Of a stretch of DNA of 64,000 bases, positions 29,687 to 50,538 are shown one piece after another. The stretch comes from Bacteroidales bacterium. Its GTDB lineage: Bacteria; Bacteroidota; Bacteroidia; Bacteroidales; ML635J-15. The notes beneath the pieces were generated by a model. The model had not been told where the DNA came from. It did not search any database and saw nothing but the letters and a program-made list of their open reading frames with translations. The stretch is taken from the NCBI GenBank assembly GCA_031275085.1, contig JAISPG010000042.1:8071-72070 (forward strand), written 5' to 3'. Position numbers and translations under genes: made by a program. Each line of letters starts with the position of its first letter. The stretch's first letter is position 1.

Positions 29687-29937
29687 AATAATAAGATTTT
29701 TGTTATACATAATTTTTGTTAAAAATAGCTTTTTATTTTTTAATGACAATATAATTTTTGACACTATTTTAATAAGTTGAATTACAAACATGATGCCAAA
29801 ATGGATTATATTTTCCATTGAAGATCTGCATATTTTGATATGCCAAATAATTATAGTCAAAAATTTTGCCTAATTTACAACTAGTTAGCTGTAATTATAA
29901 AAGATAATAACAAATTCTAATTTATAAAAATTTTTAA

Positions 29938-29976
29938 TGTAAAAATTTTTGCCATTAAGTGTAAAATTATTTTACA
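29938..29976. promoter_or_regulatory. paired dyad UAS (degenerate site + perfect TGTAAAAT-T-ATTTTACA) upstream of the tolC-like gene
   Basis: The perfect palindrome is at 29960-29976, and arms of 11 nt (AAGTGTAAAAT) extend it to 29957-29979. The degenerate copy TGTAAAAATTTTTGCCA is at 29938-29954. Confidence 0.7.
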
Positions 29977-30029
29977 CTTAATGATGTTTTCGTATTTTTA
30001 ATACTTTGAATAGTAGTGTTTTATCCTTT

Positions 30030-30045
30030 TGGCATAACATTAGTA
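30030..30045 (+). promoter_or_regulatory. putative sigma-54 -24/-12 promoter (TGGCATAACATTAGTA)
   Basis: The GG lies 63 bp from the dyad centre and the element ends 25 nt before the ATG. The same element and spacing occur at three other units. The -12 position reads AGT instead of GC. Confidence 0.55.
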
Positions 30046-30069
30046 TAAATAAACATAAAAAGGAATAAG

Positions 30070-31398
30070 ATGAGATTTTCCACTTTATTTTTTATTATGT
30101 TTTTTATTTTTTCCGGAGTCGCTTCACAGGAAAACATCTGGACTCTGGAAGGATGTATGCAATATGCAGTAGAAAATAGTTCGAAAATTTATAAACAATT
30201 AGCTAAAAATACTATTACAGCTCAAAATTATAAAGAATCAGTAGGAAACCTGTTACCATCTTTAAATGCCGGAAGTAGTGTGTATTTCAACTTTGGACGA
30301 CAACTAGACCCGGAAACAAATAATTATAATAATATAAATTCATTCAGTAACAGTTACAGTATTTATTCTTCACTAAATTTGTTCAGCGGACTATCCGGAA
30401 TAAATAGTTTAAAAATGCAGAAAGTAAATAAATTAAGAGGAGTAGAAGAATTACAGGAAATAAAGGATATCGTTGCTTACGAAACTATGGAAGCCTATTT
30501 GAATGTTTTATATATAAAAGAAATTTACAAATTAGCCGGACTACAGTTGGAAGAAAGTCGCAGAAGTCTTGAACAAATAAAAAAGATGGAGCAATTAGGA
30601 ATAAAAGGAAGTCCTGATGTTGCCGAATTAACAGCAAAAGAAGCAGCTGATAATTATAACCTCACAAAACAAAAAAATCAACTTACGATAGCAATGATAA
30701 AGTTGAAAGAAAAAATGAACTATCCTTTTGATAAAGACATTGAACTATCAGAGTATGAGGATCTGCAATCAATTCAAAAAACTACAGAAACAGCTGATAA
30801 TATTTATGAAAAAGCTCTTTCTTCGTATAGTAGAGTACTTTCGGCGGCGTATAGTCTTAAATCCAGTAATCTGGCTTATAATGTTTCAAAAGGATATCTT
30901 TTCCCAAAGCTCAGTGTAGAAGCCGGATATTCTACAGGATTTTCCCGTTACATGGATGGCAGTACTTTCTATGACCCTTTCAAGGAACAAATGAAGAACC
31001 GCCAGGGCTATTATATAGGATTTTCACTTTCTGTTCCTATATTTAACGGATTTTATTATTCAGCCAACTTAAAAAGAAATAAACAAAACTTTATGATAGC
31101 TCAGTATGAGTATGATGAAATTTTATATTCGATTTATTCCGAAATAGAACAGGCCGTAGCCGATATGAACGGACAGGCAGATGCTTATATACAAGCCCAG
31201 AAACAGGTAGAAGCAATGAAATTAGCACACTCTGCGAACCAAAAAAAATATGATCAGGGTTTAATTAGTGCAATTGAATTAACAACCAGCTCTAACAGGC
31301 TTTTATCTGCTCAAATCGAAGAGATAAATGCAAAATATATGTTCTGGCTAAAATATAAATTAGTGAAATATTACAAAGGAGAAAGTTTTGTAAACTAA
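30070..31398 (+). CDS. TolC-family outer membrane efflux protein
   Basis: 442 aa with a signal peptide and OEP repeats (WTLEGCMQYAVENS..., C-terminal LISAIELTTSSNRLLSAQ). Confidence 0.85.
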   Translation: MRFSTLFFIMFFIFSGVASQENIWTLEGCMQYAVENSSKIYKQLAKNTITAQNYKESVGNLLPSLNAGSSVYFNFGRQLDPETNNYNNINSFSNSYSIYSSLNLFSGLSGINSLKMQKVNKLRGVEELQEIKDIVAYETMEAYLNVLYIKEIYKLAGLQLEESRRSLEQIKKMEQLGIKGSPDVAELTAKEAADNYNLTKQKNQLTIAMIKLKEKMNYPFDKDIELSEYEDLQSIQKTTETADNIYEKALSSYSRVLSAAYSLKSSNLAYNVSKGYLFPKLSVEAGYSTGFSRYMDGSTFYDPFKEQMKNRQGYYIGFSLSVPIFNGFYYSANLKRNKQNFMIAQYEYDEILYSIYSEIEQAVADMNGQADAYIQAQKQVEAMKLAHSANQKKYDQGLISAIELTTSSNRLLSAQIEEINAKYMFWLKYKLVKYYKGESFVN

Positions 31399-31459
31399 AA
31401 ATGAGAAGTAAAATATTTTTCAATTTTATAGATATTAAGAACTTTATAAACTGATTTTT

Positions 31460-32722
31460 ATGGAAAATAATATGGATAGAATACTGGAAAAGAAAAAAGG
31501 AATAAGAAAAAAACACATTCCTTATATCTTATTCGGGATTTTTATTCTGGTAGTTCTTGGGTGGGCAGTATTTGGCAATCATGTTTCAAAATTTAGTGTC
31601 GAAAAACAAAAACTTATTATCCAGAATGTAACCAATGGCGAATTTAACGATTATATACGTATAAACGGACAGGTGCAGCCCATAAATACAATACAGTTAA
31701 GTGCTATTGAGGGAGGTATGGTGGCTGAAAAAGTTGTGGAAGAAGGCTCAATTCTAAAGAAAGAAGATATTATTATCCGTCTTAATAATCCCATGTTAAG
31801 TCTTAATATTCTTGACAGCGAAGCTCAACTTGCCGAAAAGCAAAACTTTCTCAGGAATACACAGGTTACAATGGAGCAGGAAAAACTGAATCTAAGAAGA
31901 GAACGTCTGCAATTAGATTTGGATGTTGAAAGAAAGAAAAGAAAATACCAGCAATATGAACAATTAAATAATGAAAATTTAATATCCAGAGAAGATTACT
32001 TACAATCCAAAGAAGACTATGAGTTTGCCGTAAATTCTCGTCAGCTGGTTATAGACAGGCAGTTTCAGGACTCTATATATAGAACGATACAGGTTGTTCA
32101 GATGGAAGAAAGTCTTGATAATATGCGTAAAAATCTTGAATTAGTACGTAAACGCGTTGAAGACTTAGATGTAAAATCTCCTATCGACGGACAATTAGGA
32201 TTATTGGATGTGGAAATCGGTCAGTCGATTTCTTCGGGAACCAGAATAGGGCAAATCAATGTTCTGTCGGATTATAAAATTGAAGCTTTGATTGACGAGC
32301 ATTATATTGACAGGGTGAAATCCGGATTAACAGCAACTTTTGAGCGTCAGGACAAGACCTTTAACCTGAAAGTCCGTAAAGTATATCCCGAAGTAAGAAA
32401 TAAACAATTTAAAACAGATTTTGTGTTTGAAGGCGACCGTCCCGAAAATATACGTTCGGGGCAGACATATTATATAAATCTGCAACTGGGACAACCAGCC
32501 GAAGCTATTCTGATTCCGCGTGGAGCATTCTATCAAAGTACAGGAGGACAATGGATTTTTGTTGTAACTCCTGAAGGCGACAAAGCTGTCCGTAGAAAAA
32601 TAAGCATAGGTCGTCAAAATCCATTGTATTATGAAGTTCTCAGCGGACTTGAATCCGGAGAAAAAGTCGTTGTTTCAAGTTATGATACTTATGGTGATGT
32701 AGAAGAATTAATATTAAAATAA
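31460..32722 (+). CDS. HlyD/MacA-type periplasmic adaptor (membrane fusion protein)
   Basis: 420 aa with an N-terminal TM anchor, a lipoyl/barrel-sandwich motif, a long coiled coil and a beta-barrel C-terminus. Confidence 0.85.
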   Translation: MENNMDRILEKKKGIRKKHIPYILFGIFILVVLGWAVFGNHVSKFSVEKQKLIIQNVTNGEFNDYIRINGQVQPINTIQLSAIEGGMVAEKVVEEGSILKKEDIIIRLNNPMLSLNILDSEAQLAEKQNFLRNTQVTMEQEKLNLRRERLQLDLDVERKKRKYQQYEQLNNENLISREDYLQSKEDYEFAVNSRQLVIDRQFQDSIYRTIQVVQMEESLDNMRKNLELVRKRVEDLDVKSPIDGQLGLLDVEIGQSISSGTRIGQINVLSDYKIEALIDEHYIDRVKSGLTATFERQDKTFNLKVRKVYPEVRNKQFKTDFVFEGDRPENIRSGQTYYINLQLGQPAEAILIPRGAFYQSTGGQWIFVVTPEGDKAVRRKISIGRQNPLYYEVLSGLESGEKVVVSSYDTYGDVEELILK

Positions 32723-32735
32723 ATATAAATATGCA

Positions 32736-32842
32736 AAAAGCAAACGAAGCATATATGAATATAAACTAACAGAATTCCCAACTCTGTTTTTATATCCGTA
32801 AAAATTTTAAACCCATTTATAAAATATGCTTTGTTTGCTTTT
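32736..32842 (+). terminator. long-range hairpin (19-bp stem, ~69-nt loop) followed by a T run, directly after the hlyD-type gene
   Basis: AAAAGCAAACGAAGCATAT (32736-32754) pairs with ATATGCTTTGTTTGCTTTT (32824-32842) at 18 of 19 positions. Confidence 0.5.
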
Positions 32843-32917
32843 TTAAGACAATTTAGCTTCTTTTACTATTTTTATTTATTAAATTCGTTTATTATTGATT
32901 TAGACAACTTTTAACAA

Positions 32918-33569
32918 CATTCCGTAAGGAATGAAAATTTGGTAGAATATACATAACAACACCTACATTCATTCCGTTAGGAACCGAAGCTCAACGACTG
33001 AAAGGAGTTAATGTAACAAAACATAAAAATATGGCAAACACCTATACACAAATCCACATTCATGTTGTTTTTTCAGTAAAAAACAGAGCCTCATTAATAA
33101 AAAATGAATGGGAAAATAAGTTACATCAGTATATAGTTGGCATTATCCAAAATTATGGGCATAAAGTTTTGGCAATCAATGGAACATCAGATCATATTCA
33201 CATTTTATTTGGTTTTCGTCCTGCGCAATCACTTTCAGTATTAATGCAAAATGTAAAACGTGACAGTTCTGCATGGATAAATCAAAATAAATTTGTCAAA
33301 GGTCATTTTTCCTGGCAAGAGGGATATGGAGGTTTTTCGTATAGTAAATCACAATTACCACAAATTATTAATTACATATTAACCCAAAAAGAACATCATA
33401 AAAAACATACGTTTCTGGAAGAATACAAAAAGATATTAGAAAAATTTGAAATAGAATATGATGAAAAATATATATTCAGCCCAACATCAGGATAATGTTA
33501 CATTCCTGACGGAATGCAGACCATTAGAATAGCATCTTTTCTACCAACGTTTTATTCCTAACGGAATAA
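32918..33569 (+). mobile_element. REP-associated tyrosine transposase unit (RAYT gene flanked by inverted REP hairpins)
   Basis: The left end 32918-32947 (cattccgtaaggaatgaaaatttggtagaa) matches the reverse complement of the right end 33539-33569 at 25 of 30 positions. Inner hairpins lie at 32970-32984 and 33501-33516. Confidence 0.75.
33031..33495 (+). CDS. IS200/IS605-like Y1 (HUH) transposase, RAYT type
   Basis: 154 aa with the HUH motif (QIHIHVVF) and a C-terminal catalytic Tyr region (INYILTQKEHHKK). Confidence 0.85.
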   Translation: MANTYTQIHIHVVFSVKNRASLIKNEWENKLHQYIVGIIQNYGHKVLAINGTSDHIHILFGFRPAQSLSVLMQNVKRDSSAWINQNKFVKGHFSWQEGYGGFSYSKSQLPQIINYILTQKEHHKKHTFLEEYKKILEKFEIEYDEKYIFSPTSG

Positions 33570-33741
33570 TCGTTGTATAAAATTTTAGTTTAATAGTACC
33601 TTATAAAATCAACAAAAAGCAGTTTGTATTATTTTTATCATATAATACATTTTATTTTATTCTTGTTAAAAATATTCCGAACTTTTTTCGCTATTGGAAA
33701 TATTAATCATATTTCATTCTAAGATAATAATCTTATCAAAA

Positions 33742-33812
33742 CGTTCCGCTTCATGTTGTTTTTTGTATATAAAATCTGCCTGTAATATCCATCTACTTTT
33801 TAAAGTATTGAT
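33742..33812. repeat. copy 1 of a duplicated 71-bp intergenic segment
   Basis: A gapless hand alignment with 35074-35144 gives 59 of 71 identical positions. Weaker similarity continues on both sides. Confidence 0.8.
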
Positions 33813-33889
33813 CAAAGAAACCATATAATTTATTGATAATATACAATTCCCATCAATAAAAACACTTCAAAACTAGTTTATTATGTCCT

Positions 33890-34510
33890 TTACTTGGCAT
33901 CATAATTTCTTACTTCTTTCTGAATAAAAATTTTTATGGTTTCCCAATCTAACTTACTATATATTTTGGGAAGTGGTTGTTCTTCTGCATCTTCAAAGTA
34001 AGCGAGGCTTCTTAGCACCATGAACGAAGAATGATTAGGATATTTTTGTTCATAAAAAGTAATCATTTGCATAAGCGAATAATGTTGAAGTAGAAAATAA
34101 AGATCCACAAAATCTTTTTTTGTTCCACGGTTGGTTATAGCAGAAAGTTTCATTGCTGCAATATCTTTTAATCCGGCCATTCTTACTCCGTCTGTTTCAA
34201 TAGCAGGTTCAAGCCATTTGTATGGGTAATTAACAATATCAACTTTTATATTGTTTATATAAAGTACTTTTATTGATTTAGTATCTTGTTTTACTACAAT
34301 ATTAAAATCTGGTGAACAAAATTCATTAATAATTTCAGTTGTAGTGGCTTCCATCGTACCAAAGAAATCAAGATCAATAGAGAATCGATGTCCTAATTGC
34401 AAAGCAAGAGCAGTTCCACCAACCAATCGCATTTGTGAAAGCAGCGAACTTTCCTGCAGTTTTTTTAAAAGTACCAGTGTGTGTGTTTCGACTGTAGAAG
34501 TTTGTAGCAT
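33890..34510 (-). CDS. short AbiEii/AbiGii-like nucleotidyltransferase (putative toxin)
   Basis: 206 aa with the NTase motif LVGGTALALQLGHRFSIDLDFF. Confidence 0.7.
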   Translation of the reverse strand: MLQTSTVETHTLVLLKKLQESSLLSQMRLVGGTALALQLGHRFSIDLDFFGTMEATTTEIINEFCSPDFNIVVKQDTKSIKVLYINNIKVDIVNYPYKWLEPAIETDGVRMAGLKDIAAMKLSAITNRGTKKDFVDLYFLLQHYSLMQMITFYEQKYPNHSSFMVLRSLAYFEDAEEQPLPKIYSKLDWETIKIFIQKEVRNYDAK

Positions 34511-34764
34511 CTAAATTGATTTTGAGGAGTATTTGTAATAGTTGAAATAAAAGAAAGCGATTCGCGTTCCATGCTTTTTATGTTCAAAGCAATTTCGCGT
34601 AATTGTTCTAATCCATAGTAAGATTTAATAAAAATCCAATCTTGCATCATTCCGTAATCCAATACACGAGCAACAATAAAAGCGGCATGTTTTTGCATAT
34701 CTAAATCATTTATGTCCACATCCCAAAAAAGATTCGGCGAAAAATTTGATAATTCATCTGTCAT
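34465..34764 (-). CDS. DUF6922-like small protein (putative cognate antitoxin)
   Basis: 99 aa with the pattern FWDVD...LD...RV...YYG...FRCYKL, recalled as DUF6922. It overlaps the NTase gene by 46 nt. Confidence 0.55.
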   Translation of the reverse strand: MTDELSNFSPNLFWDVDINDLDMQKHAAFIVARVLDYGMMQDWIFIKSYYGLEQLREIALNIKSMERESLSFISTITNTPQNQFRCYKLLQSKHTHWYF

Positions 34765-35073
34765 GGCTCAATTATTTCATTTTATGGCAAATATAATTGT
34801 TTTTTTGAAAATATTTATGATGTTATACGTTAAGCTAAATTTGAAAATCCGAAACAAACCATGGCATAAATAATTCGGTAACATTTTGATATTTTTTAAT
34901 AAAATTTTCCCTGAATGAAGAAAATAAACAAAAAATTTTGGCTTTGAAAACGGCATAATACCAAAATGATTTATTTTTCATTCCTAAGTGTTCGGCATAG
35001 TCTCTTTTGACTATGTCGGATTAAAAACAAAGCTCCGGCTTTGTATCTTATACCATTTCTTTGGCATAAAATC

Positions 35074-35144
35074 CGTTCCGCTTTATGCTGTTTTTTGTAT
35101 ATAGAGTCTGCCTGTAATCTTCGTTTGTTTTTTAAATTATTAAT
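35074..35144. repeat. copy 2 of the duplicated 71-bp intergenic segment
   Basis: See 33742-33812. This copy sits immediately upstream of the functional-looking UAS of ftsX-1. Confidence 0.8.
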
Positions 35145-35151
35145 TACAATG

Positions 35152-35189
35152 TGTAAAATATTTTACCATAATTGTAAAATAATTTTACA
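35152..35189. promoter_or_regulatory. paired dyad UAS upstream of ftsX-1
   Basis: GTAAAATATTTTAC is at 35153-35166 and the perfect TGTAAAATAATTTTACA is at 35173-35189. Confidence 0.7.
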
Positions 35190-35242
35190 TTTCCCAATTA
35201 AATAAAATAAATAAACGACTTGTAATTAGCACATTACCTGTT

Positions 35243-35258
35243 TGGTATAACTTTAGCA
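35243..35258 (+). promoter_or_regulatory. putative sigma-54 -24/-12 promoter (TGGTATAACTTTAGCA)
   Basis: GG and GC are spaced as in RpoN promoters. The GG lies 63 bp from the dyad centre and the element ends 32 nt before the ATG. Confidence 0.6.
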
Positions 35259-35289
35259 TGCTACATATAATAAAGATAATAAAATATTA

Positions 35290-37656
35290 ATGAGGAATTT
35301 TATATTAGCACTTCGTTCATTATTAAAAAAAGGACAGGGAAATATTGTTAAAATACTATCTCTCGGTGTTGGCTTAGCAGTTGGACTAATAATTATTGCA
35401 GAATTATATTTTGAATTCAATTATGATAACTTTTATCCAGATTCCGAACGGATATACCAAATAAGAACTAACTTTAAGATGGGTGATGATGAAGCTGAAC
35501 CTGATGATAGAACAAGTGGTGGAGTTGCTTTAGGTATGCGCAATGAAATTCCGGGAGTAGAATCGGCAACCAGAGCGACCTTTTTTAGTGATGTTTTTTA
35601 TACTGAAGACAAGCAAAAATTTTCCGAAAATGCTTATTTAGCTGATGAAATGTTTTTTGATGTACTGCCGCGTCCAATGGTGTTGGGAAATGCCAAAGAA
35701 ATCCTTTCAAAACCTATGTATGCAATAATTTCGCGTTCGGTAGCAGAAAAACTTGCAGAAAATATATCCGGTGTTATAGGACAAACCATTGAATTTGAAG
35801 GCTATCCTGATAAAAATGTTATTATAGGCGGCATATTTGAAGATTTGCCGAAAAACTCTCATTTACAATATGATATACTGATTTCATTAAATTCAATAAT
35901 AAATTTCTGGCAATGGGACGGTTCCTTGAATTGGGACGGAAACGAAAGGTATTATGGATATGTTAAATTAGCTGATGGAATAAATCCCGACAACCTGGCA
36001 ACTCCAATACTGGAAATGCAAAAACGACATCAGGATCTGGAAGAATACGAAAAAGAAGGATATGAAATATCATATTTTCTGGTTCCTCTTTCCAAAGCCC
36101 ATACCGAAGTTCCGGGACTTTTAATGATAGTTGCATTTATTGCACTTCTGGCTTTTGTAATAATTCTTATTGCCGTAACAAATTATATCCTTATTGTAAT
36201 TTCATCTTTGGTAAACCGTACAAAAGAAATCGGAGTATATAGATGTTACGGAGCTTCGAATAAGAATATTACAGGAATTATACTTTCGGAAACATTAGTT
36301 CACCTTTTCCTGTCTTTAATAGTAGCTGCAGTATTTATTTTAATCCTTAAACCTACAATAGAAAATATTTTCGGAAATCCCATAGAAGCATTATTTACTT
36401 TTAATTCGGCACTGTTGTTAACCGTTGTTTGCGGTTTTGTATTTCTGTTCACAGGACTTATTCCGGCAAGAATATTTGTAAGGATTCCGGTAAGTGCCGC
36501 ATTTCGCAACTTTAAAGGCAATCGGAGGCGCTGGAAACATATCCTGCTGTTTTTCCAGTTTACAATAGTATCATTTCTGATAACATTACTGATAATAATG
36601 GGATTGCAATACAGGTTAATGATAAATGACAATCCCGGCTACGAATACGAAAATGTTCTGTATCATTATACATACGGATTAACTGCAACAGAACATCAAA
36701 AAGCTATGGATGAATTAAAAAAATCGCCACAAGTAGAGTTGGTAACAGAAGGAACATTCTTTTTGTACGGACCATCCGGAAATAATGTTTATGTACCTGA
36801 TGATGAGCGTGCACAATTCAACTTCGGCGACTTATACAGCGTTGATGAAAACTATCTTGATTTATTTGAAATTCCTGTTGTAGAAGGAAAAAATTTCGAT
36901 ATAAATTCCACCCCAAATCAAATGATAGTAAGCCGTTCGTTCGCAGAAAAACTATCCGGATTACAGAATTGGAAAGATGGAGTTGTAGGCAAAAACGTGC
37001 TTGTTACAGAACACGATGGAATACATACAATAATCGGAGTTCACGAGAATATTCGTATTGGCTCGGTTCAGGATAGTGACCCCAGACCAACAGCGATGTT
37101 CTACAAAAACAAGAATTTCCATCCCGGAATTATTTTTATAAAACTATCGCAATTAAATCAGGAAACAATTCTGCAGGTAATTGATATTCTGGAATCGGCA
37201 AATCCCGGCAAAGATGTTACGGTTACACCATATAAAGCTACAATGATAAGCATGTACGATTCTTTTAAAGATATGCGTAATATAATAATGGTAATAGGAA
37301 TTATTACATTGATAATAGCCATAACAGGACTTGCCGGATACACAAGAGACGAAGTCAACCGCAGAAGTGCCGAAATAGCAATACGAAAAATAAACGGAGC
37401 AACAATCCTGAATATTCAAAAATTATTTATTATTAATATTCTGTGGGTATCAATTCCTTCTGTTGCAATAGGCAGCACTTTGTCTTTATTTGTTGCGGCA
37501 AAATGGATGGAAAGTTTTACAAAAACCATAGATTTTTCAATATGGCTGTTCTTGTTATGCAGTATCATAGTTTTGTCAATAATAGTAATTATTATGCTTA
37601 TAGGTACATATAGAATTGCAGTTAAAAATCCGGTAGAGTCAATAAAAAATGAATGA
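35290..37656 (+). CDS. MacB-type ABC transporter permease with duplicated FtsX domains (ftsX-1)
   Basis: 788 aa with an N-terminal TM helix, two large extracytoplasmic regions and two FtsX TM bundles. It carries the shared C-terminal signature EIAIRKINGA...KWMESF...NPVESIKNE. Confidence 0.85.
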   Translation: MRNFILALRSLLKKGQGNIVKILSLGVGLAVGLIIIAELYFEFNYDNFYPDSERIYQIRTNFKMGDDEAEPDDRTSGGVALGMRNEIPGVESATRATFFSDVFYTEDKQKFSENAYLADEMFFDVLPRPMVLGNAKEILSKPMYAIISRSVAEKLAENISGVIGQTIEFEGYPDKNVIIGGIFEDLPKNSHLQYDILISLNSIINFWQWDGSLNWDGNERYYGYVKLADGINPDNLATPILEMQKRHQDLEEYEKEGYEISYFLVPLSKAHTEVPGLLMIVAFIALLAFVIILIAVTNYILIVISSLVNRTKEIGVYRCYGASNKNITGIILSETLVHLFLSLIVAAVFILILKPTIENIFGNPIEALFTFNSALLLTVVCGFVFLFTGLIPARIFVRIPVSAAFRNFKGNRRRWKHILLFFQFTIVSFLITLLIIMGLQYRLMINDNPGYEYENVLYHYTYGLTATEHQKAMDELKKSPQVELVTEGTFFLYGPSGNNVYVPDDERAQFNFGDLYSVDENYLDLFEIPVVEGKNFDINSTPNQMIVSRSFAEKLSGLQNWKDGVVGKNVLVTEHDGIHTIIGVHENIRIGSVQDSDPRPTAMFYKNKNFHPGIIFIKLSQLNQETILQVIDILESANPGKDVTVTPYKATMISMYDSFKDMRNIIMVIGIITLIIAITGLAGYTRDEVNRRSAEIAIRKINGATILNIQKLFIINILWVSIPSVAIGSTLSLFVAAKWMESFTKTIDFSIWLFLLCSIIVLSIIVIIMLIGTYRIAVKNPVESIKNE

Positions 37657-37782
37657 CCCCAAAGTGGAATATTTTTCATTCTGTAGAGTTTGTCTCAATT
37701 TGACGGAACTATGAGATTTTCAAAACGGAATGAAAAACAAATCACTTTGATATAAAATGATGGTGAAATATGCTAATGCAAA

Positions 37783-38568: not shown

Positions 38569-39182
38569 AAATCATAAATTTTAATAAGTAAATTAACTCT
38601 ATTACTTAGTACCTTAGATTGAAACCTTTCTGTAAATTCATTTAAACGCTCTATATTCAAATCCTCTTGCATAAATTCTTCATCAAACCGCAATTCTCTG
38701 ATTTCTTGCTCGTTATTATATATAGGATAAAGATACAACAAATCTAAAATAGCTTTTTCGGGAGTCGCAAAAAGCAAACTTGGTTTATTCGAAAACGCTT
38801 TTTGTTCATACCCGAACATCAACTTCGGTAAAATTTGTTGATACAAAAATGAGCCGAAAACATTCTCGAAATTTGCCTTTTTCAATGAACTTACAGCAGT
38901 TGTCTGCACTATTGCTTCAGGAATAATATCATAAAATGCCAATGCCGAATGTAAGCTTACATAAGAAGGACTATATATCCTATTTGAAACAAGATACTGA
39001 AAATTAGGCATTTTTAGATATTCAGGGAAACTATACCATGAATTACGCAATTTTACCAGTAAATTCTGCTTTGTCCAACGAGTGAGATTATTTTTATCAA
39101 AATCAGGTTTCCATGCATACACTTGATTAACATTGAAGCACGCCAAGTCATAAAATTGATTTCTAAATTGCCAAAAGTTCAT
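38562..39182 (-). CDS. AbiEi-like antitoxin / transcriptional regulator
   Basis: 206 aa lying directly upstream of the AbiEii gene and overlapping it by 7 nt. It has the motif SPSYVSLHSALAFYDIIPE, typical of AbiEi-type partners. Confidence 0.65.
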   Translation of the reverse strand: MNFWQFRNQFYDLACFNVNQVYAWKPDFDKNNLTRWTKQNLLVKLRNSWYSFPEYLKMPNFQYLVSNRIYSPSYVSLHSALAFYDIIPEAIVQTTAVSSLKKANFENVFGSFLYQQILPKLMFGYEQKAFSNKPSLLFATPEKAILDLLYLYPIYNNEQEIRELRFDEEFMQEDLNIERLNEFTERFQSKVLSNRVNLLIKIYDLC

Positions 39183-39326
39183 TTTAATTTAATTCTGTTT
39201 TTCCGTAAAAATACATAAAAAGAGAATTAAAACAAATTTTAATTAAAAAACATTACGGAATTAAGAGATTTTTTAAACATAGAATAAATGACTTCCTTAA
39301 ATAAATACAATCCTAATTCCGGGAAC

Positions 39327-39365
39327 TGTAAAATATATTATCACAGATTGTAAAATAATTTTACA
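39327..39365. promoter_or_regulatory. paired dyad UAS upstream of ftsX-2
   Basis: The degenerate site TGTAAAATATATTATCACA is at 39327-39345 and the perfect TGTAAAATAATTTTACA is at 39349-39365. Confidence 0.7.
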
Positions 39366-39419
39366 TTCCGGAACTAATCTTGATTATGTAAAATTCTTAT
39401 AATTATACCTTTAGCTATT

Positions 39420-39435
39420 TGGCAAGATTTTAGTA
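39420..39435 (+). promoter_or_regulatory. putative sigma-54 -24/-12 promoter (TGGCAAGATTTTAGTA)
   Basis: The GG lies 64 bp from the dyad centre and the element ends 77 nt before the ATG. The -12 position reads AGT. Confidence 0.5.
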
Positions 39436-39511
39436 TATATTTATAACAATTAAATTAAAAAAGTGATTTTTTTGTTAGCCATGAGAAGTACTAAATATAA
39501 AAATTCTTTTT

Positions 39512-41854
39512 ATGAAAACAATATTTAAGAATTTTATCCATTTATTGTCAAAATTCAGGACATCAAGTATTTTCAATATTCTGGGTTTATCTGTTGCATT
39601 AGTTGTGTTTTTTATTGTATTAATGCAAGTCCATTACGATTTTACATTCGACCGTGGATATACTAATTCCAATAAAATTTTTCAGTTTAACAGATATTAC
39701 TTAGAAGATGGCGAAGAAGAAACTTCAACAAATATTAATTTTCAGATTCCTGAATTTCTAAAAGAGTCATTTCCGGAAATTGAAAATTATTGTATGCTTT
39801 CTAACTGGGGAAGTAGCGAATTTGATATTCTCAAAGAAGATGATTTTGTTGAAACATACAATATCCCTTTTATCCGCTCAACTCCGGGATTTTGGAAAGT
39901 TTTTTCTCCCGAAATAATTTACGGCGACACTACCGCAATATTTTCAGCTCCTGGGAGAGCAATGATTTCGGAAAAAACTGCCGAAAAACTTTTTGGAGAA
40001 GAAAATGCTTTAGGGAAAACCATTGATTTTCATTATAGTTCTTCGCCAATGACGGTTCAGGCTGTTTATCGCGATTTTCCCGAAAATTCTTCCATAGGCA
40101 ACGGATTATATACATATTTACAGAAGTACGATGAAACAGAATGGAGTTTTCATGCATATTTTCTGATTAATCCTCAAAACATAACCTTTGTCAGGGAAAA
40201 AATCAATTCAGCCGAAATTATTAGTGAAGAAACTTTTAACTACCTTAAAGAAAATCCCGATATTATTCTTGAAAACAGATTGTCCTGCTTAAACGAACTT
40301 TATCTGGATGATTCGGGCATGGGCGGAAGCAAACGTATCAATACAACAATTACACTGCTCGTTATTGGTATCTTAACATTGTTCGTTGCTTTTGTGAATT
40401 TTATTAATCTTTCATTGGCAATGTCTCCATCTCGGGTAAGGAGAATAAATATTCATAAAGTACTCGGAATAAACAAATTAAAATTACGATTTACAATATC
40501 CCTCGAAAGCGTTTTTTTAACCATAATCTCATTAATCCTGGCTTTTCTGGGAATATCATTCCTTAAAGACACATCGTTTGCACAGGGTATATTTTCAACA
40601 AATCTTTCATTATGGCAGCATTCCGGATTATTATTAGCTGCAATGGCTATAATTTTAATAATTGCTCTCCTGATAGGACTTTACACATCAAAATACACAA
40701 TATCTTTTGATGTATCGGAAGCCCTGAAAGGTTCGTTTTCTCTGGGAATAAAAGGTAAAAGATTACGTAATGTACTTATAGTTATCCAGTTTACAACAGC
40801 AATTGCATTAATTTGTATTTCAACATTTATAAAACTACAGCACAACCACATGTTGAACCACGATTGGGGTATTCCGAAAGAAAATGTTGTTTATATGCCT
40901 CTTTATGGTTTGGGACAGAATGCCGAAGCCTTTGGACAGGAATTATTAAGGAATCCCAATATTAAAGATTATTGCATAACCCGCGACCTTCCCGGAGGGG
41001 TTGGAATGAGTTGGGGACGTGAGTTTGAAGGAAAAGACATCAGTCTTTTTGTCTGGTCTGTAGATGACAGGTTTTTCGACTTTTTTGAAGTTGACATCAT
41101 TGAAGGACGTAAACCCGAACATATGGATTCTGTTGTTTCACAAATTGTTTTAAATGAAACATTTTTGAAAAAATACGAATTTGATGCCGAACTTGTAGGC
41201 AAAGATTTTCCTGCTTTTGGTCCCGGACGAGTTCAAGCCATAGCAAAAGATGTAAACTTTCAGTCACTGCATGTACCTATTACGCCTATGGCTTTCGGAG
41301 TTTTATCTCAATGGAATAATTTTAGTTATTTTCTTGTAAAGTTAAGCGGAAATAATCTTAGAGAAGAAATAGCATATATTGAACAAACATGGAATCAGTT
41401 TAGTAAAGAACCGTTTGAAGTTCGTTTCCTTGACGAAAATATGGATAATTTGTACAAACAGGAAAACAACATGGCAAAATTAATTGGTATTTTTGGGTTT
41501 ATAATTGTGATAATTGCCATAATGGGAGTTTACGGACTTATACTTTTCAATACAAAGTACAAAGAAAAAGAAATTGCCATACGCAAAGTAAACGGCTCAA
41601 CCGAAAAAGAAATTATATTTATGCTGAATCGTTCTATAGTGTTGCAATTGATAATCGCATTTATATTAGCCATTCCTATCGTTTACTTTTTTGTAGACAA
41701 ATGGCTCAACAACTTTGCTTATAAAATTTCCATTTCGTGGTGGGTATTTTTGCTTGGCGGACTTGTTATTTTTATAATCACACTTGCTACCGTTACAATT
41801 CAAAGTTATAAGGCAGCTGTGATGAATCCTGTAAAGTCATTGAATAAAGAATAA
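39512..41854 (+). CDS. MacB-type ABC transporter permease with duplicated FtsX domains (ftsX-2)
   Basis: 780 aa with the same architecture. It is the closest paralogue of ftsX-3; their termini align by eye. Confidence 0.85.
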   Translation: MKTIFKNFIHLLSKFRTSSIFNILGLSVALVVFFIVLMQVHYDFTFDRGYTNSNKIFQFNRYYLEDGEEETSTNINFQIPEFLKESFPEIENYCMLSNWGSSEFDILKEDDFVETYNIPFIRSTPGFWKVFSPEIIYGDTTAIFSAPGRAMISEKTAEKLFGEENALGKTIDFHYSSSPMTVQAVYRDFPENSSIGNGLYTYLQKYDETEWSFHAYFLINPQNITFVREKINSAEIISEETFNYLKENPDIILENRLSCLNELYLDDSGMGGSKRINTTITLLVIGILTLFVAFVNFINLSLAMSPSRVRRINIHKVLGINKLKLRFTISLESVFLTIISLILAFLGISFLKDTSFAQGIFSTNLSLWQHSGLLLAAMAIILIIALLIGLYTSKYTISFDVSEALKGSFSLGIKGKRLRNVLIVIQFTTAIALICISTFIKLQHNHMLNHDWGIPKENVVYMPLYGLGQNAEAFGQELLRNPNIKDYCITRDLPGGVGMSWGREFEGKDISLFVWSVDDRFFDFFEVDIIEGRKPEHMDSVVSQIVLNETFLKKYEFDAELVGKDFPAFGPGRVQAIAKDVNFQSLHVPITPMAFGVLSQWNNFSYFLVKLSGNNLREEIAYIEQTWNQFSKEPFEVRFLDENMDNLYKQENNMAKLIGIFGFIIVIIAIMGVYGLILFNTKYKEKEIAIRKVNGSTEKEIIFMLNRSIVLQLIIAFILAIPIVYFFVDKWLNNFAYKISISWWVFLLGGLVIFIITLATVTIQSYKAAVMNPVKSLNKE

Positions 41855-41873
41855 ATATAAACTAAAAATGAGT

Positions 41874-42076
41874 GGTTCGACTCTGCTCACCAACTGAGGA
41901 ATGAGAAATAAAAAATGAAGAAGTAAAAGAATGGAGAAGTTAATAGAAGTTAAAGAAAGGACAATTTGCTACTAAATAAGAAATACAGAAAAATTTGCAA
42001 CTGATTAAAAATGAGAAATAAATTTAAATAATTAATAAAATAATAACAACCTTAGTGCGGTGAGCGGAGCCGAACC
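41874..42076. repeat. MITE-like element: 18-bp imperfect terminal inverted repeats around a purine-rich ~170-bp core
   Basis: GGTTCGACTCTGCTCACC (41874-41891) matches the reverse complement of GGTGAGCGGAGCCGAACC (42059-42076) at 16 of 18 positions. There is no ORF inside. Confidence 0.55.
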
Positions 42077-42109
42077 GTACCTCTGTGGTTACTTAAAATT
42101 GAAATAATT

Positions 42110-42790
42110 ATGATAAAAATTGAAAATTTAAGAAAAGTATTCAGAACAGAAGAAGTAGAAACTGTTGCTTTAAATGGAGTATCAATGGGAGTCGGTGATG
42201 GCGAATTCGTAGCCATAATGGGACCTTCCGGTTGCGGAAAATCAACATTGTTGAATATCTTAGGTTTGTTGGATAACCCTACATCCGGAGAATATTTTCT
42301 TGCAGAGCAGGAAGTCGGACATTTAAAAGAAAAATACCGTACCGAAACCCGTAAGGGAAAAATCGGCTTTGTCTTTCAGAGTTTTAACCTTATCGAAGAA
42401 ATGACGGTTTACGAAAATGTAGAACTACCTTTGATATATCTGAAAATAAAACCTTCGGAACGTAAAAAACTTGTAGAAGAAGCACTTCGCAGGATGAACA
42501 TAAGTCATCGTACAAAACATTTTCCAAACCAGCTTTCGGGAGGTCAGCAGCAACGTGTTGCAATTGCGCGTGCAGTAGTTGCAAATCCTAAACTGATTCT
42601 TGCCGATGAACCTACCGGAAATCTGGATTCTAAAAACGGAAAAGATGTTATGACTTTGCTGTCAGAGCTAAATCGTGAAGGTACAACAATTGTAATGGTT
42701 ACTCACTCGCAGCATGATGCGTCTTATGCTCACAGAATTATAAATCTGTTTGACGGGCAAATTGTTACGGAAGTTGAGAGTAAGATGTAG
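42110..42790 (+). CDS. ABC transporter ATP-binding protein (MacB/LolD type)
   Basis: 226 aa with Walker A GPSGCGKS, the signature LSGGQQQR, Walker B LILADEPT and an H-loop (VTHS). Confidence 0.92.
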
Positions 42791-43156
42791 AGAAATAGGT
42801 TTGTTATTGTAATATAATGTAAGAATAATTTTTTTGAGAACTGCACATTTGAGAAAATCATATTTCAAGTTCACAAATTTAATTATTTCTTAATAAAAAG
42901 ACAAATTTTGATGAATACTTCTTTCTTTTTCTAAAAATTTCTTATCATACACCATTGATAATAAATGATTTATGAAAGCATTGTATTAAAATGAATCAAA
43001 AACGCACTTTCAAATGAGCAATTTTTTAAATAATTGTTGATTTTGTTGTGCAATTGTTGTATATTTAATAGAAAGTGACTAAAATTATAAAACCATATAG
43101 ATTTATTAACACAATTATTTGAAAAATAAGATATATATTTGTAAGAAAATACCGGA

Positions 43157-43624
43157 ATGGAAGATATTAGATGGCGTCAGCGTTTTGACAATTATCGTAA
43201 GGCATTAACAAAGTTATCAAATAATATTGATTATATAAAAGAAAAATATAATCATATGGATCTTAATAATGATAAAATCTACAGCGATATAGCTCTGACT
43301 ATTGAAGATATCTATAAACAAGGCTTGATACAAAGCTTTGAATTTACCCATGAATTAGCCTAGAAAGTTATGCAGGATTTTGCCAGAGATCAGGGTAATA
43401 ACGAAATACATGGAAGTAAAGATGCAACCCGATATGCGGCTCAGGTAAATATTATCGGTAATGCTCATGTTTGGATGGATATGATAATCAGCCGCAACGA
43501 AACTTCCCATACTTATAATGAAAGTACGGCTAACACTATTTTCTCGACCATCATTACAAAATATTATCCATTATTGTTGGATTTTGAAACCAAAATAGAA
43601 AGTATTTGTAATGAAAATCAATGA
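43157..43624 (+). pseudogene. HI0074-family HEPN (nucleotidyltransferase substrate-binding) toxin gene interrupted by one in-frame TAG
   Basis: ORFs 43157-43363 and 43370-43624 are in the same frame. The TAG at 43361-43363 replaces the Trp of the conserved F-E-F-T-x-E-L-A-W-K motif. The HEPN Rx4H motif (RNETSH) lies in the downstream part. Confidence 0.8.
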
Positions 43625-43946
43625 AAACGATATTGAACAACAAACAGGCTTATCGAACAGCGACATGGCAAAAATAATATCTATTTTTGCCGAATTTCCG
43701 GCATTAGAAAAAGTTTGGCTTTACGGTTCGCGGGCAAAAGGTAATTTTCAACCCTATTCGGACATTGATATAACTTTGCAAGGAAACGCATTGAATATAG
43801 AAATACAACATCAAATAGAATGGGCACTGGATGATTTATTTCTTCCTTATACTTTTGATGTATCCATTTTATCAGCCATTAGTAACCAAAATTTACTTGC
43901 TCACATTAATCGTGTTGGTATTCTGATATATGAAAAAGAAACCTGA
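43611..43946 (+). CDS. minimal nucleotidyltransferase (MNT, HI0073-like antitoxin)
   Basis: 111 aa with the pol-beta NTase motif LYGSRAKGN...SDIDI. It overlaps the HEPN gene by 14 nt. Confidence 0.85.
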   Translation: MKINENDIEQQTGLSNSDMAKIISIFAEFPALEKVWLYGSRAKGNFQPYSDIDITLQGNALNIEIQHQIEWALDDLFLPYTFDVSILSAISNQNLLAHINRVGILIYEKET

Positions 43947-44147
43947 AAAATTCTAATAAACTTAATTAATAAAAAACAGCATCTAATTCTGTTATCCGAA
44001 TACTATTCCACTTTGGGCTTTCGGATTGAATTATTAAACTTATCAGGTTAAGAAAATAAATTCTTTTAAGTGTATTTTTATTACAATAAATACATATTTT
44101 GCCTATGTTTTGTTACAAAATGATTATTTTTTTGAATTAAGATTAAA

Positions 44148-45485
44148 CTACAAATGAGTTTTTAATATTTTATTAATATTACCTGCATAATAAAACGGAA
44201 CATTGTATAAATTAAATTCTTTTCCCGATTGCGTTTTTACCTTATCAATAGAAAAAGGATTATTCCAAATCCTGATTGCTGTGGAATGATTTGTATTTTC
44301 CATGAATATATGCAGAGATTTTAGTTTTGAATTATGTCCTGATTTTACTTCAAGTGGAATTAACATGTTTTCATATTGTATGATGAAATCAATTTCTGAA
44401 TCTGCACCTTTTTTGTCCCGGACCCAAAATATCCTTTTATTTGAAAGTTTAGTATTTGCAGCTAAAAGTTCTTGGGCTACAATTTGTTCTGCAATTAATC
44501 CTCTCCAAATATCAGTTATATCCTTTGTACCAAAAATTTCTCTTTGGATATTTGCCGAATAATTTACTAATCCCGTATCCAACCAGAATAATTTCGGTTT
44601 ACGTTTATGATTAGTTACCAGGGGAAGCATATAATTAGTTGTGGGATAAGTAAGCTCCAATAACATTGCTTTTTCAAGAGTGCGAAAAGCTTCTCCCATT
44701 TCTCTTGCTTTGTAGGATGAGCCGGCAAAACTTCCTATGGTTATTCTTTGTGCTGCAAAAGACCAGCCTTCATCTAATATATATCGTATAGCGTGCGCCA
44801 TTGTCTGGTTTCGGGCATATTTTTCCACATCTTCTTTATAACCAAATAAAAGAGATTCATAAATATTATTGATAGCTACTAAATCTTTGTATTTTGAATA
44901 AAAGCTAACAACTTCAGGCATTCCTCCTATTAGCGTATATGTATTGAATAAATCTGAAATTTTGTTATGTATAACCTCAGGAACAGACAATTCCACTACA
45001 GCCTTTTTAATCTCGGTTTCCCCCATAGCACCAAGAAATTCATCAAAAGTGCAAGGTCTTATTGCCATGTATTCAACTCTGCCGACAGGAAATGAAATAT
45101 GTGTGTCAATTAAGCTTTCAAGTAACGAACCTGCTGCAATTACATAAAGTTCAGGAATTTGTTCGTAAAAATATCTTAACTGCATTATTGCTTTTGTTGA
45201 ATTTTGTATTTCATCAATAAATAATAATGTCTTATTGTTTGTCTTTGGTTTATTGCAATATAAATAGATCCCTGATAATATTTCTTCAATCCCTTTTTCG
45301 GTTTCAAAAAGTTCTTTTGCCTGGGATATTTCTAAATTTAAGTATAAATAAGTGTCAAAATCTTTGCTGAATTCGTTAATAAGAGTGGTTTTTCCTACTT
45401 GTCTGGCTCCTCTGAGAACCAAAGGCTTTCGATTCAGACCTCCCGCCCAGATTCTTAATTGTTTTATAATATTTCTTTCAAACAT
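44148..45485 (-). CDS. AAA-family ATPase with a DUF4143 C-terminal domain (COG1373 type)
   Basis: 445 aa with Walker A GARQVGKTT, Walker B LLFIDEIQ and a C-terminal restriction-endonuclease-like segment (EIDFIIQYENMLIPLEVKSG). Confidence 0.85.
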   Translation of the reverse strand: MFERNIIKQLRIWAGGLNRKPLVLRGARQVGKTTLINEFSKDFDTYLYLNLEISQAKELFETEKGIEEILSGIYLYCNKPKTNNKTLLFIDEIQNSTKAIMQLRYFYEQIPELYVIAAGSLLESLIDTHISFPVGRVEYMAIRPCTFDEFLGAMGETEIKKAVVELSVPEVIHNKISDLFNTYTLIGGMPEVVSFYSKYKDLVAINNIYESLLFGYKEDVEKYARNQTMAHAIRYILDEGWSFAAQRITIGSFAGSSYKAREMGEAFRTLEKAMLLELTYPTTNYMLPLVTNHKRKPKLFWLDTGLVNYSANIQREIFGTKDITDIWRGLIAEQIVAQELLAANTKLSNKRIFWVRDKKGADSEIDFIIQYENMLIPLEVKSGHNSKLKSLHIFMENTNHSTAIRIWNNPFSIDKVKTQSGKEFNLYNVPFYYAGNINKILKTHL

Positions 45486-45510
45486 TTGTTTTTTTACAAA
45501 GATAATTATT

Positions 45511-45609
45511 TTGTTTCAAAGTAGGGGTATATTTTTAGTTTTTTTGTTTCAAAGTAGGGGTGTATTTTTAAATTTTTTGTTTCAAAGTAGGGGTATGCTT
45601 TTATTTTAA
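45511..45609. repeat. 3 x 33-bp tandem direct repeat (core TTGTTTCAAAGTAGGGGT)
   Basis: Cores lie at 45511-45528, 45544-45561 and 45577-45594, an exact 33-bp period. A degenerate fourth copy at 45487-45510 abuts the ATPase start codon. Confidence 0.9.
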
Positions 45610-45631
45610 AGTGATATTATCTATTAAAAAA

Positions 45632-45669
45632 TGTAAACTATCTTATCACTACTGTAAAATAATTTTACA
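45632..45669. promoter_or_regulatory. paired dyad UAS upstream of ftsX-3
   Basis: The degenerate site TGTAAACTATCTTATCA is at 45632-45648 and the perfect TGTAAAATAATTTTACA is at 45653-45669. Confidence 0.7.
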
Positions 45670-45723
45670 CTTTTAAAACAATATTAAATCATTAAGCTAC
45701 TAATTATCAATCAATAATCATTT

Positions 45724-45739
45724 TGGTAAATTCTTTGCT
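45724..45739 (+). promoter_or_regulatory. putative sigma-54 -24/-12 promoter (TGGTAAATTCTTTGCT)
   Basis: This is the best match to the TGG-N9-TTGC consensus. The GG lies 64 bp from the dyad centre and the element ends 25 nt before the ATG. Confidence 0.65.
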
Positions 45740-48133: not shown

Positions 48134-48138
48134 ATATC

Positions 48139-50454: not shown

Positions 50455-50538
50455 TATTATATAACGACTAAGACACGGAGAACACTAAGGTTTTATTTCT
50501 TAGTGCCTTTAGTACTTTAGTGGTAAAAAAAACTTACT

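Follow-up and report, generated by a model that had tools for sequence, protein, structure and literature searches.

Candidate enhancer-dependent sigma-54 promoter modules upstream of four units of a Bacteroidales ABC efflux locus

Several described systems resemble the regulatory arrangement considered here. The NtrC/NtrB-type enhancers, for example those of glnAp2 and of the AtoSC and ZraSR regulons, have in common with it the tandem dyads that lie on the same helical face roughly 80-110 bp upstream of the transcription start. They also have a -24/-12 promoter with GG and GC elements, to which the predicted promoters here correspond in part, and a regulator of receiver (REC), AAA+ and HTH_8 domains with a PAS/HisKA kinase, as encoded by relatives of the organism studied. 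Similarly, the half-sites TGTAAA and TTTACA are identical to those of the TyrR/PhhR box, TGTAAA-N6-TTTACA (PMC4894688), which is bound by a protein of the enhancer-binding protein (EBP) family. An independent computational study has found sigma-54 promoters over-represented ahead of FtsX permeases (COG0577) in Bacteroidia (PLoS One 2025, PMC12316311), and the gene family, taxon and sigma factor named in the available part of that article are all as we propose here. As for the encoded proteins, the MacAB-TolC, DevBCA-TolC, DarBCD and ADOP exporters likewise comprise a MacB_PCD+FtsX permease, a separate or fused ATPase, an HlyD-type adaptor and a TolC-type channel. Our search of the literature for any regulator or motif described for such clusters in Bacteroidetes returned only the 2025 enrichment study, with nothing specific in PMC10434189.

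Four modules in one efflux locus

The window, which is the whole 64-kb stretch of DNA analysed, encodes OEP (TolC-like), HlyD, MacB_PCD+FtsX and ABC_tran proteins together at one locus, all with Pfam matches above gathering scores. Modules lie directly upstream of tolC-hlyD, ftsX1, ftsX2-ATPase and ftsX3-5, and the corresponding units are as follows.

30070-32722, plus strand: unit 1, TolC-like outer membrane factor (30070-31398) and HlyD-type adaptor (31460-32722); Pfam OEP, HlyD_3
35290-37656, plus strand: unit 2, duplicated MacB_PCD+FtsX permease FtsX1, 788 aa; Pfam
39512-42790, plus strand: unit 3, FtsX2 permease (39512-41854) and ABC ATPase (42110-42790); Pfam
45764-52956, plus strand: unit 4, three tandem duplicated FtsX permeases (45764-48133, 48139-50454, 50539-52956); Pfam, including Logan contig labels

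Judged by domain content, the locus encodes a tripartite ABC exporter of the MacB/DevCBA/ADOP class with no named orthologue. The nearest NCBIfam model for the unit 1 adaptor is DarC and FtsX1 is ADOP/DarB-like, both with scores below cut-off, while the ATPase is 71-77% identical to those of relatives' clusters. All eight transporter ORFs are intact. The locus is interrupted by mobile and toxin-antitoxin cargo, and the 255-bp gap between the FtsX2 and ATPase genes contains an inverted-repeat element. Rfam and tRNA scans of the window gave no matches. The elements that make up each module are listed below.

29938-29954, plus strand: module 1 distal (weak) dyad TGTAAAAATTTTTGCCA, 2 mismatches, 22 bp upstream of proximal
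29960-29976, plus strand: module 1 proximal perfect dyad TGTAAAATTATTTTACA, predicted EBP site, centre about -88
30029-30045, plus strand: module 1 -24/-12 element TTGGCATAACATTAGTA, predicted start near 30056, core matrix rank 12
35152-35168, plus strand: module 2 distal dyad TGTAAAATATTTTACCA, 2 mismatches, 21 bp upstream of proximal
35173-35189, plus strand: module 2 proximal perfect dyad
35242-35258, plus strand: module 2 -24/-12 element TTGGTATAACTTTAGCA, weakest of the four, core matrix rank 125
39327-39343, plus strand: module 3 distal dyad TGTAAAATATATTATCA, 2 mismatches, 22 bp upstream of proximal
39349-39365, plus strand: module 3 proximal perfect dyad
39419-39435, plus strand: module 3 -24/-12 element TTGGCAAGATTTTAGTA, core matrix rank 29
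45632-45648, plus strand: module 4 distal dyad TGTAAACTATCTTATCA, 2 mismatches, 21 bp upstream of proximal
45653-45669, plus strand: module 4 proximal perfect dyad
45723-45739, plus strand: module 4 -24/-12 element TTGGTAAATTCTTTGCT, core matrix rank 28
29783-29799, minus strand: possible fifth, divergent -24/-12 element TTGGCATCATGTTTGTA, core matrix rank 3 in the window

The 17-bp perfect palindrome TGTAAAAT-N-ATTTTACA / TGTAAAATNATTTTACA occurs exactly four times in the 64-kb window and in none of 100 shuffles, at the same four coordinates that an earlier, sequence-only reading of this DNA had given. Distal dyads were scored against TGTAAA-N5-TTTACA, with offsets from the proximal dyads taken start to start. 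Dyads with two mismatches are at chance level window-wide (18 found, 14.7 expected); the placement of 4/4 distal dyads at one offset of 21-22 bp is not chance. That reading had also described these distal copies, and their presence and offset hold, while two of its end coordinates were off by 1-2 bp. The degenerate right half CTTGCCA of the module 1 distal dyad recurs in the same form in distal sites of relatives, as does the CTTATCA-type right half of module 3.

Sigma-54 promoters carry the first G of a GG and the G of a GC 12 nt apart (TGGCAC-N5-TTGC). The pattern TTGGYA-N6-TWGYW matches the window five times against 0.97 expected, a count reached by no shuffle, and four of these five matches sit 63-64 bp from a dyad centre. 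When recomputed, the distances between the palindrome centre and the initial G of the GG in modules 1-4 are 63, 63, 64 and 64 bp, in agreement with the sequence-only reading, and the gap between dyad and promoter is 52-53 bp. Paired, helically phased dyads at a fixed distance from a -24/-12 element are thus present in 4/4 modules, and the promoter-like elements end 24, 31, 76 and 24 nt ahead of the ATGs at 30070, 35290, 39512 and 45764. Aligned with each other, the modules are invariant in the dyads and at the GG/G positions, and the intervening spacers have diverged. Since these spacers are unconserved and the downstream genes are non-homologous (TolC versus FtsX), simple duplication does not account for the identity of the modules.

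On promoter score alone, the four elements are weak matches. A core-position weight matrix built from relatives' promoters and scored over 127,952 window positions placed them at ranks 12, 28, 29 and 125; a full-length matrix, which put 0/4 modules in its top 15, was discarded as confounded by the higher G+C of relatives' spacers. The GG and the -12 G stand at exact spacing in 4/4 modules, two have the C of GC (GT in the other two), none has the C of GGCAC (two read GGT), and TAG replaces TTG in three of the four -12 elements. The sequence-only reading had taken AGT at -12 as a sign that some promoters might be weak or dead, but relatives commonly have GT at this position and only the G never varies among them, so AGT alone does not mark a dead promoter. 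Low scores, the lack of a two-component system at the locus and its division by mobile and toxin-antitoxin cargo could also be read as decay, in which the modules would be relics left after loss of that system, with -24/-12 elements that have drifted in a genome rich in AT and a locus that is silent or otherwise transcribed. We regard this as improbable, given that 4/4 proximal dyads are perfect at 17/17 positions, that the GG and -12 G are kept at exact spacing and that every transporter ORF has stayed open. Indeed, perfect dyads and exact GG/-12 G spacing amid freely diverged spacers point to ongoing selection.

The possible fifth element points at a lipoprotein-like ORF (29102-29818), and a distance of 138 nt separates it from the dyads of module 1. 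No homologue of this ORF occurs in any fetched relative locus, which leaves the element without comparative support.

Housekeeping sigma-A promoters of Bacteroidetes are marked by a TAnnTTTG -7 box a short distance ahead of the start and by TTTG at -33. No TAnnTTTG box occurs between the dyads and the ATG in any of the four modules, and the motif was found at -22 to -45 of four other plus-strand window genes, housekeeping genes among them.

The same module in related genomes

Species-representative genomes were scanned for a dyad followed by a promoter at any gap of 40-70 bp. Of 120 matches, 57 fell in a peak at gaps of 51-55 bp, and homologues of TolC, HlyD, FtsX or the ATPase lay downstream of 43/57 in this class as compared to 2/63 at other gaps. 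Members of the 51-55 bp class are nearly all from Bacteroidales, with tandem TGTAAA-N5-TTTACA dyads about 22 bp apart followed by TTGGCACG-N4-TTGCT. Among 35 non-redundant relatives, positions unconstrained by the search spell TGGCACG, which is the canonical -24 box of sigma-54, and 23 have the distal dyad at 21-23 bp. The positions orthologous to the window's elements therefore carry a canonical sigma-54 promoter in relatives. An IHF-like AATCA element is possible in relatives' spacers and is not clearly present in the window.

A second sample consisted of 80 metagenome loci retrieved solely by homology to the cluster EBP. Efflux genes were found in 54/80, the dyad again stood 53-56 bp from TGGCA[CT], and in the promoter set from these loci TGGCAC was present in 16/18 and the -12 G in 18/18. 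What is directly observed comprises the elements themselves, how they are spaced and conserved, and their association with efflux genes and with the relatives' regulator gene, and by these comparisons the module is real and conserved across many related gut bacteria.

The dyads might instead be operators of a repressor or other regulator, for example an AbiEi-type antitoxin, with transcription through the housekeeping sigma factor. AbiEi antitoxins bind paired inverted repeats, and three modules of the four occupy divergent intergenic regions with minus-strand cargo genes (DUF6922/AbiEii, AbiEi, AAA_14) alongside. Module 1, however, has no such neighbour, the -7 box is missing downstream of the dyads, and relatives carry the canonical TGGCACG-N4-TTGC at a fixed distance. 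Moreover, in relatives such as L038 the modules sit directly between efflux genes with cargo absent, and on that ground both the AbiEi-operator and the mobile-element-end readings were rejected; we give operator function very little credence.

Regulator genes and predicted control

Clusters of relatives encode an NtrC-type response regulator (REC, sigma-54 AAA+, HTH_8) and a PAS/HisKA histidine kinase within, at the end of, or beside the efflux genes, and homologues of this REC-EBP usually adjoin such genes. In place of GAFTGA, its sigma-54 contact loop has GAFTDA. Among NCBIfam models, PrsR and AtoC come closest to the regulator and AtoS to the kinase, with scores far below equivalog cut-offs. 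An EBP gene linked to its target genes is thus found in relatives and is lacking from the window and its 18 kb of flanks: with three REC-EBPs and three kinases as tblastn queries, the window yielded only a receiver-less EBP and no remnant, and the flanks (8 kb left, L201; 10 kb right, L203) held neither a two-component system nor modules. A database-wide homologue search for the host's own regulator returned only matches at least 70% identical, all from other organisms and none with the AT-rich amino-acid bias of the host genome. The sequence-only reading, which had noted no kinase or response-regulator EBP beside the locus, missed the following gene.

22005-23234, plus strand: receiver-less sigma-54 EBP gene, Pfam Sigma54_activat + HTH_8, GSFTSA loop, 409 aa

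The presence of this gene suggests that the genome uses sigma-54; no ORF with an RpoN box was found within the 64-kb window. The receiver-less EBP is itself a possible activator of the modules, which would then be sigma-54/EBP-dependent after loss of the cluster two-component system. Within about 82 kb there is no other EBP gene, the HTH_8 domain of its product is of the cluster-EBP type, and a 1-mismatch dyad (21999-22015) overlaps its start codon. Such dyads nevertheless occur at chance frequency, the sigma-54 contact loop reads GSFTSA, and the gene stands 8 kb upstream of the efflux locus in a housekeeping context unrelated to efflux (hflX-EBP-lptE-like-secG-rsfS-ftsH). In addition, every EBP found beside a dyad module and efflux genes in Bacteroidota carries a receiver domain, also where the dyads share the exact AT-rich centre of those in the window (L025, L080). 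We consider its role as the activator unlikely.

Each module is, probably, an enhancer-dependent sigma-54 promoter under an NtrC-type EBP. The one-regulon interpretation put forward in the earlier reading, in which EBP dyads and -24/-12 elements would govern the export locus, gains support from three independent comparisons. An NtrC-type EBP dimer would bind the strong proximal dyad centred near -88, and a second dimer would bind the weaker distal dyad cooperatively, two helical turns upstream, near -109. The bound EBP would assemble into an active AAA+ ring, the AT-rich 52-53 bp spacer would loop, and ATP hydrolysis would open the closed complex of sigma-54 RNA polymerase on TTGG-N10-G at -24/-12. 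In this way the four modules would place tolC-hlyD, ftsX1, ftsX2-ATPase and ftsX3-ftsX4-ftsX5 under one signal, and the product would be a tripartite MacB/DevCBA/ADOP-type ABC exporter with five alternative duplicated permeases. From sequence we infer binding to the dyads, sigma-54 dependence in this genome, the kind of activator used here and an inducing signal. By analogy to relatives, the activator would be the REC-AAA+-HTH_8 regulator with its PAS/HisKA kinase, which are encoded at the cluster there and in this genome presumably act in trans from elsewhere.

A more elaborate scenario, unlikely as a whole, is that the organism lost its own NtrC-type two-component system and kept the four enhancers. 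Regulation could in that case have passed to another or a remote activator, perhaps the receiver-less EBP encoded 8 kb upstream. In the same scenario, a divergent fifth sigma-54 promoter, serving a lineage-specific lipoprotein, could also depend on the module 1 enhancer, and toxin-antitoxin and mobile cargo could insert preferentially in the gaps immediately upstream of the enhancers.

Significance and relation to known systems

The data offer a testable cis-regulatory code, in which tandem TGTAAA-N5-TTTACA dyads are followed after 51-55 bp by a sigma-54 promoter, for the very abundant and uncharacterised multi-paralogue FtsX/MacB-like efflux clusters of gut and rumen Bacteroidales. Such a code would allow regulon prediction across genomes, and the sensor kinase offers a route to the signals to which these pumps respond. 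The mechanism would be that of a textbook enhancer-dependent promoter and changes no concept; the module is an ordinary example of a well-known type of gene control.

Sigma-54 control of Bacteroidia FtsX permeases was already predicted computationally in 2025 (PMC12316311). In its available part, that study reports the enrichment of -24/-12 matches per COG only, and mentions neither a dyad enhancer, the 51-55 bp geometry, a cluster two-component system nor several promoters per cluster. As compared to NtrC/NtrB-type systems, the site here is TGTAAA-N5-TTTACA, the genes under control would form an ABC efflux cluster that has several promoters inside it, the contact loop in relatives is GAFTDA, the regulator genes are missing from the locus in the window, and the relatives' regulator and kinase are orthologous to no named system (NCBIfam matches below cut-offs). 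The sites also fall outside the TyrR box, as the spacer is 5 bp rather than 6 in 4/4 modules and in all retrieved relatives, and the relatives' regulators carry receiver domains in place of TyrR-type ACT/PAS N-termini. Similarly, NCBIfam matches of the locus proteins to DarB/C/D, MacB and ADOP are all below cut-off, and, unlike those of the MacAB, DevBCA, DarBCD and ADOP exporters, the permeases here are internally duplicated, about 780-805 aa long and unfused to the ATPase, with five permease paralogues for one ATPase gene.

Repeated modules in the export locus

Exactly four copies of the palindrome TGTAAAATNATTTTACA were found by pattern search in the 64-kb window, as compared to none in 100 dinucleotide-preserving shuffles of it, and the four perfect palindromes of the sequence-only reading are thus borne out. 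Each is the proximal dyad of a module that also contains a weaker distal dyad and a -24/-12 element, and the modules precede the transcription units of the export locus as follows.

Module 1: distal dyad starting at 29938, proximal dyad at 29960; tolC-hlyD, 30070-32722
Module 2: distal dyad at 35152, proximal dyad at 35173; ftsX1, 35290-37656
Module 3: distal dyad at 39327, proximal dyad at 39349; ftsX2 and ABC ATPase, 39512-42790
Module 4: distal dyad at 45632, proximal dyad at 45653; ftsX3-ftsX4-ftsX5, 45764-52956

The distal dyads each carry two mismatches to TGTAAA-N5-TTTACA and lie 22, 21, 22 and 21 bp upstream of the proximal dyads in modules 1-4; the degenerate second copies proposed earlier are therefore all present at 21 or 22 bp, with two of their end coordinates off by 1-2 bp. 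Because sites of this quality occur at chance frequency across the whole window (18 found versus 14.7 expected), the significance of the distal sites rests on their position. Five matches to TTGGYA-N6-TWGYW were counted in the window versus approximately one expected, and for four of them the distance from the palindrome centre to the first G of the GG was recomputed as 63, 63, 64 and 64 bp, confirming the fixed geometry that had been claimed for -24/-12 elements before four genes. Counted from their ends, these four elements stand 24-76 nt ahead of the ATGs of the TolC-like gene (30070) and of three duplicated MacB_PCD+FtsX permeases (35290, 39512 and 45764). When the four regions are aligned, no difference is seen among them in the dyads, in TTTGG or at the -12 G, and the spacers are unconserved.

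A weight matrix built from only the core positions of promoters in related genomes ranked the four elements 12, 28, 29 and 125 of 127,952 window positions, and on score alone they would not be callable as promoters. In all four the C of TGGCAC is missing; GGT is found in two, and TAG replaces TTG in three. GT at -12 had been read as a possible sign of a weaker or non-functional promoter; in relatives' loci fetched through their enhancer-binding protein (EBP) the -12 G is invariant and the following base is C, T or A, so that GT is normal in this family. That the modules are decaying relics is very improbable, given four perfect proximal dyads, exact geometry and transporter ORFs that are all intact.

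A fifth -24/-12-like element, TTGGCATCATGTTTGTA (29783-29799, minus strand), is nearer to consensus than the four module elements and ranks 3 in the window by the same matrix. It faces a lipoprotein-like ORF (29102-29818) whose real start is likely near 29686-29710, and the module 1 dyads are 138 nt away; this element may be a divergent promoter that shares the module 1 enhancer.

Module geometry and regulators in relatives

We scanned one genome per species for TGTAAA-N5-TTTACA, N{40,70} and TTGGYA-N6-TWGYW, with the free gap between proximal dyad and -24/-12 element serving as an internal control, and obtained at least 120 matches at no fewer than 119 loci. Among the matches listed, gaps were non-uniform: 57 of 120 fell at 51-55 bp, a range that takes in the window modules (52-53 bp when measured in the same way), and nearly all of this class came from Bacteroidales and other Bacteroidia. 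A homologue of the window's TolC, HlyD, FtsX or ATPase, counted if its start lay no more than 3.5 kb downstream in the same orientation, accompanied 43 of these 57 listed matches versus 2 of the 63 listed with other gaps. The 51-55 bp class has the same tandem layout, as in tgtaaagtttctttaca-ctcac-TGTAAAGAAACTTTACA and then TTGGCACG-N4-TTGCT; of the 35 non-redundant relatives among the matches listed, 23 have a distal dyad, 21-23 bp away. Degenerate distal right halves CTTATCA and CTTGCCA are common to the window and some relatives. After TGGCA, at positions unconstrained by the pattern, the relatives have C and G, giving the canonical sigma-54 box TGGCACG. Since the relatives' proteins are 54-77% identical to those of the window, the architecture is conserved across considerable evolutionary distance.

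A protein of roughly 450 aa is also encoded at some of these module loci; it combines a receiver, a sigma-54 AAA+ domain with a GAFTDA loop, and HTH_8 (REC-EBP), and its gene lies within the cluster or divergently beside the module. Using the REC-EBP of one such locus (L085) as query, we fetched 80 metagenome loci by homology alone, with no DNA motif, and TolC, HlyD, FtsX or ATPase genes adjoin the regulator in 54, the remainder being mostly short contigs. Of the 28 cases in these loci where a dyad and TGGCA[CT] occur together, 19 have them 53-56 bp apart and none 20-45 or 57-71 bp apart; a few are spaced about 20 bp more widely, which is what a distal dyad would give. A predicted histidine kinase gene, recognised by HATPase_c and by weak PAS/HisKA matches, follows the regulator gene in three loci (L157, L187 and L133), either overlapping it or directly adjoining it.

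The relatives' geometry, the linkage to efflux genes and the linked REC-EBP and kinase genes together support the sequence-only proposal of a sigma-54/EBP regulon over the export locus, and the modules are best described as putative NtrC-type enhancers with sigma-54 promoters, a textbook class. It is unlikely that the dyads are instead repressor operators at housekeeping-sigma promoters, because the -7 box TAnnTTTG is absent between dyads and ATGs, whereas four other plus-strand genes of the window do have it (at -22 to -45), and because relatives have canonical sigma-54 boxes and modules in clusters without adjoining mobile cargo.

Divergent REC-EBP genes were also seen 1.5-2.2 kb from modules with 61-63 bp gaps in Prolixibacteraceae and Flavobacteriaceae (Dokdonia, Yeosuana; loci L021, L025, L064, L080 and L098), some of which share the window's exact AT-rich dyad centre, TGTAAAATAATTTTACA or TGTAAAATTATTTTACA. 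Outside Bacteroidota, TGTAAA-N5-TTTACA likewise precedes canonical sigma-54 promoters, but the fixed gap differs by lineage, being 42 bp in Poribacteria, 47-48 in Aminicenantes and 70 in Clostridia (L005, L028, L034, L054, L055, L087, L112, L119 and others); in Clostridia and Poribacteria, several of these loci have an EBP gene next to them. From these comparisons, several lineages of EBPs seem to use the half-site.

The exporter and its cargo

The window has a G+C content of 31.8% and stems from a member of Bacteroidota; it encodes a Por_Secre_tail protein and has Bacteroidales MAGs as nearest relatives. The export locus is a predicted tripartite ABC exporter of the MacB/DevCBA class, its permeases being nearest to the ADOP and DarB families, its adaptor to DarC and its ATPase to DarD (NCBIfam, all scores below cut-off). 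Units that are contiguous in relatives are separated here, unlike there, by mobile or toxin-antitoxin cargo, present in every gap between them (32723-35150, 37657-39326 and 42791-45631):

IS200-like Y1 transposase (Y1_Tnp; gene 33031-33495) with AbiEii/DUF6922
AbiEii/AbiEi
Nucleotidyltransferase pair, NTase_sub_bind with NTP_transf_2/Polbeta
AAA_14/DUF4143 ATPase

A 71-nt direct repeat (33742-33812 and 35074-35144, 83% identical) flanks the AbiEii/DUF6922 cassette, its second copy stopping 8 bp short of the module 2 distal dyad, which suggests that the cassette was inserted, with duplication, immediately upstream of the module 2 enhancer. The intergenic stretch from the ftsX2 stop to the ATPase gene contains an element of about 215 bp (41870-42080). 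Its centre is purine-rich, its RNA fold z-score is -5.7, and its termini are inverted repeats rich in G+C (GGTTCGACTCTGCTCACC at 41874-41891, its reverse complement with two mismatches at 42059-42076); it looks MITE- or REP-like. A tandem repeat (45505-45607; 3.2 copies of the 33-bp unit ATTTTTTTGTTTCAAAGTAGGGGTATATTTTT) sits between the AAA_14/DUF4143 gene start and the module 4 distal dyad.

A second TolC-like gene occupies 22-1443 on the minus strand, with an RND-type adaptor just past the left end of the window (L201, the left extension of the contig). Neither dyad nor -24/-12 module was found at these genes, and the module is therefore specific to the FtsX-type locus.

Regulator genes and known systems

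No receiver-EBP or kinase gene, or remnant of one, was found in the window, 8 kb to its left or 10 kb to its right; the two flanks contained no modules, a database search returned no REC-EBP orthologue from the source organism, and the 64-kb window has no rpoN gene. The earlier statement that neither a sensor kinase nor a response-regulator EBP is encoded beside the locus needs one correction, since the window contains a sigma-54 EBP gene:

22005-23234: receiver-less EBP (Sigma54_activat, AAA_lid_14, HTH_8; GSFTSA loop)

This gene lies 8 kb upstream, in the neighbourhood hflX-EBP-lptE-like-secG-rsfS-ftsH, and shows no obvious link to the export genes. We consider it improbable that its product activates the modules, as all EBPs found beside efflux-gene modules in Bacteroidota have a receiver domain. 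A one-mismatch dyad, TATAAAATGGATTTACA (21999-22015), spans part of its start region, overlapping the start codon, and is probably fortuitous. The window locus is unusual only in lacking cognate regulator genes and in having cargo inserted between its units.

Literature searches found no description of the dyad, the geometry or a two-component system for these efflux clusters. A 2025 computational survey reports that COG0577 FtsX permeases of Bacteroidia are enriched in upstream sigma-54 promoters, a link that its authors term previously unrecognised (PMC12316311). The TyrR box has the same half-sites as the window dyads but a spacer of 6 bp (PMC4894688) rather than 5 bp.
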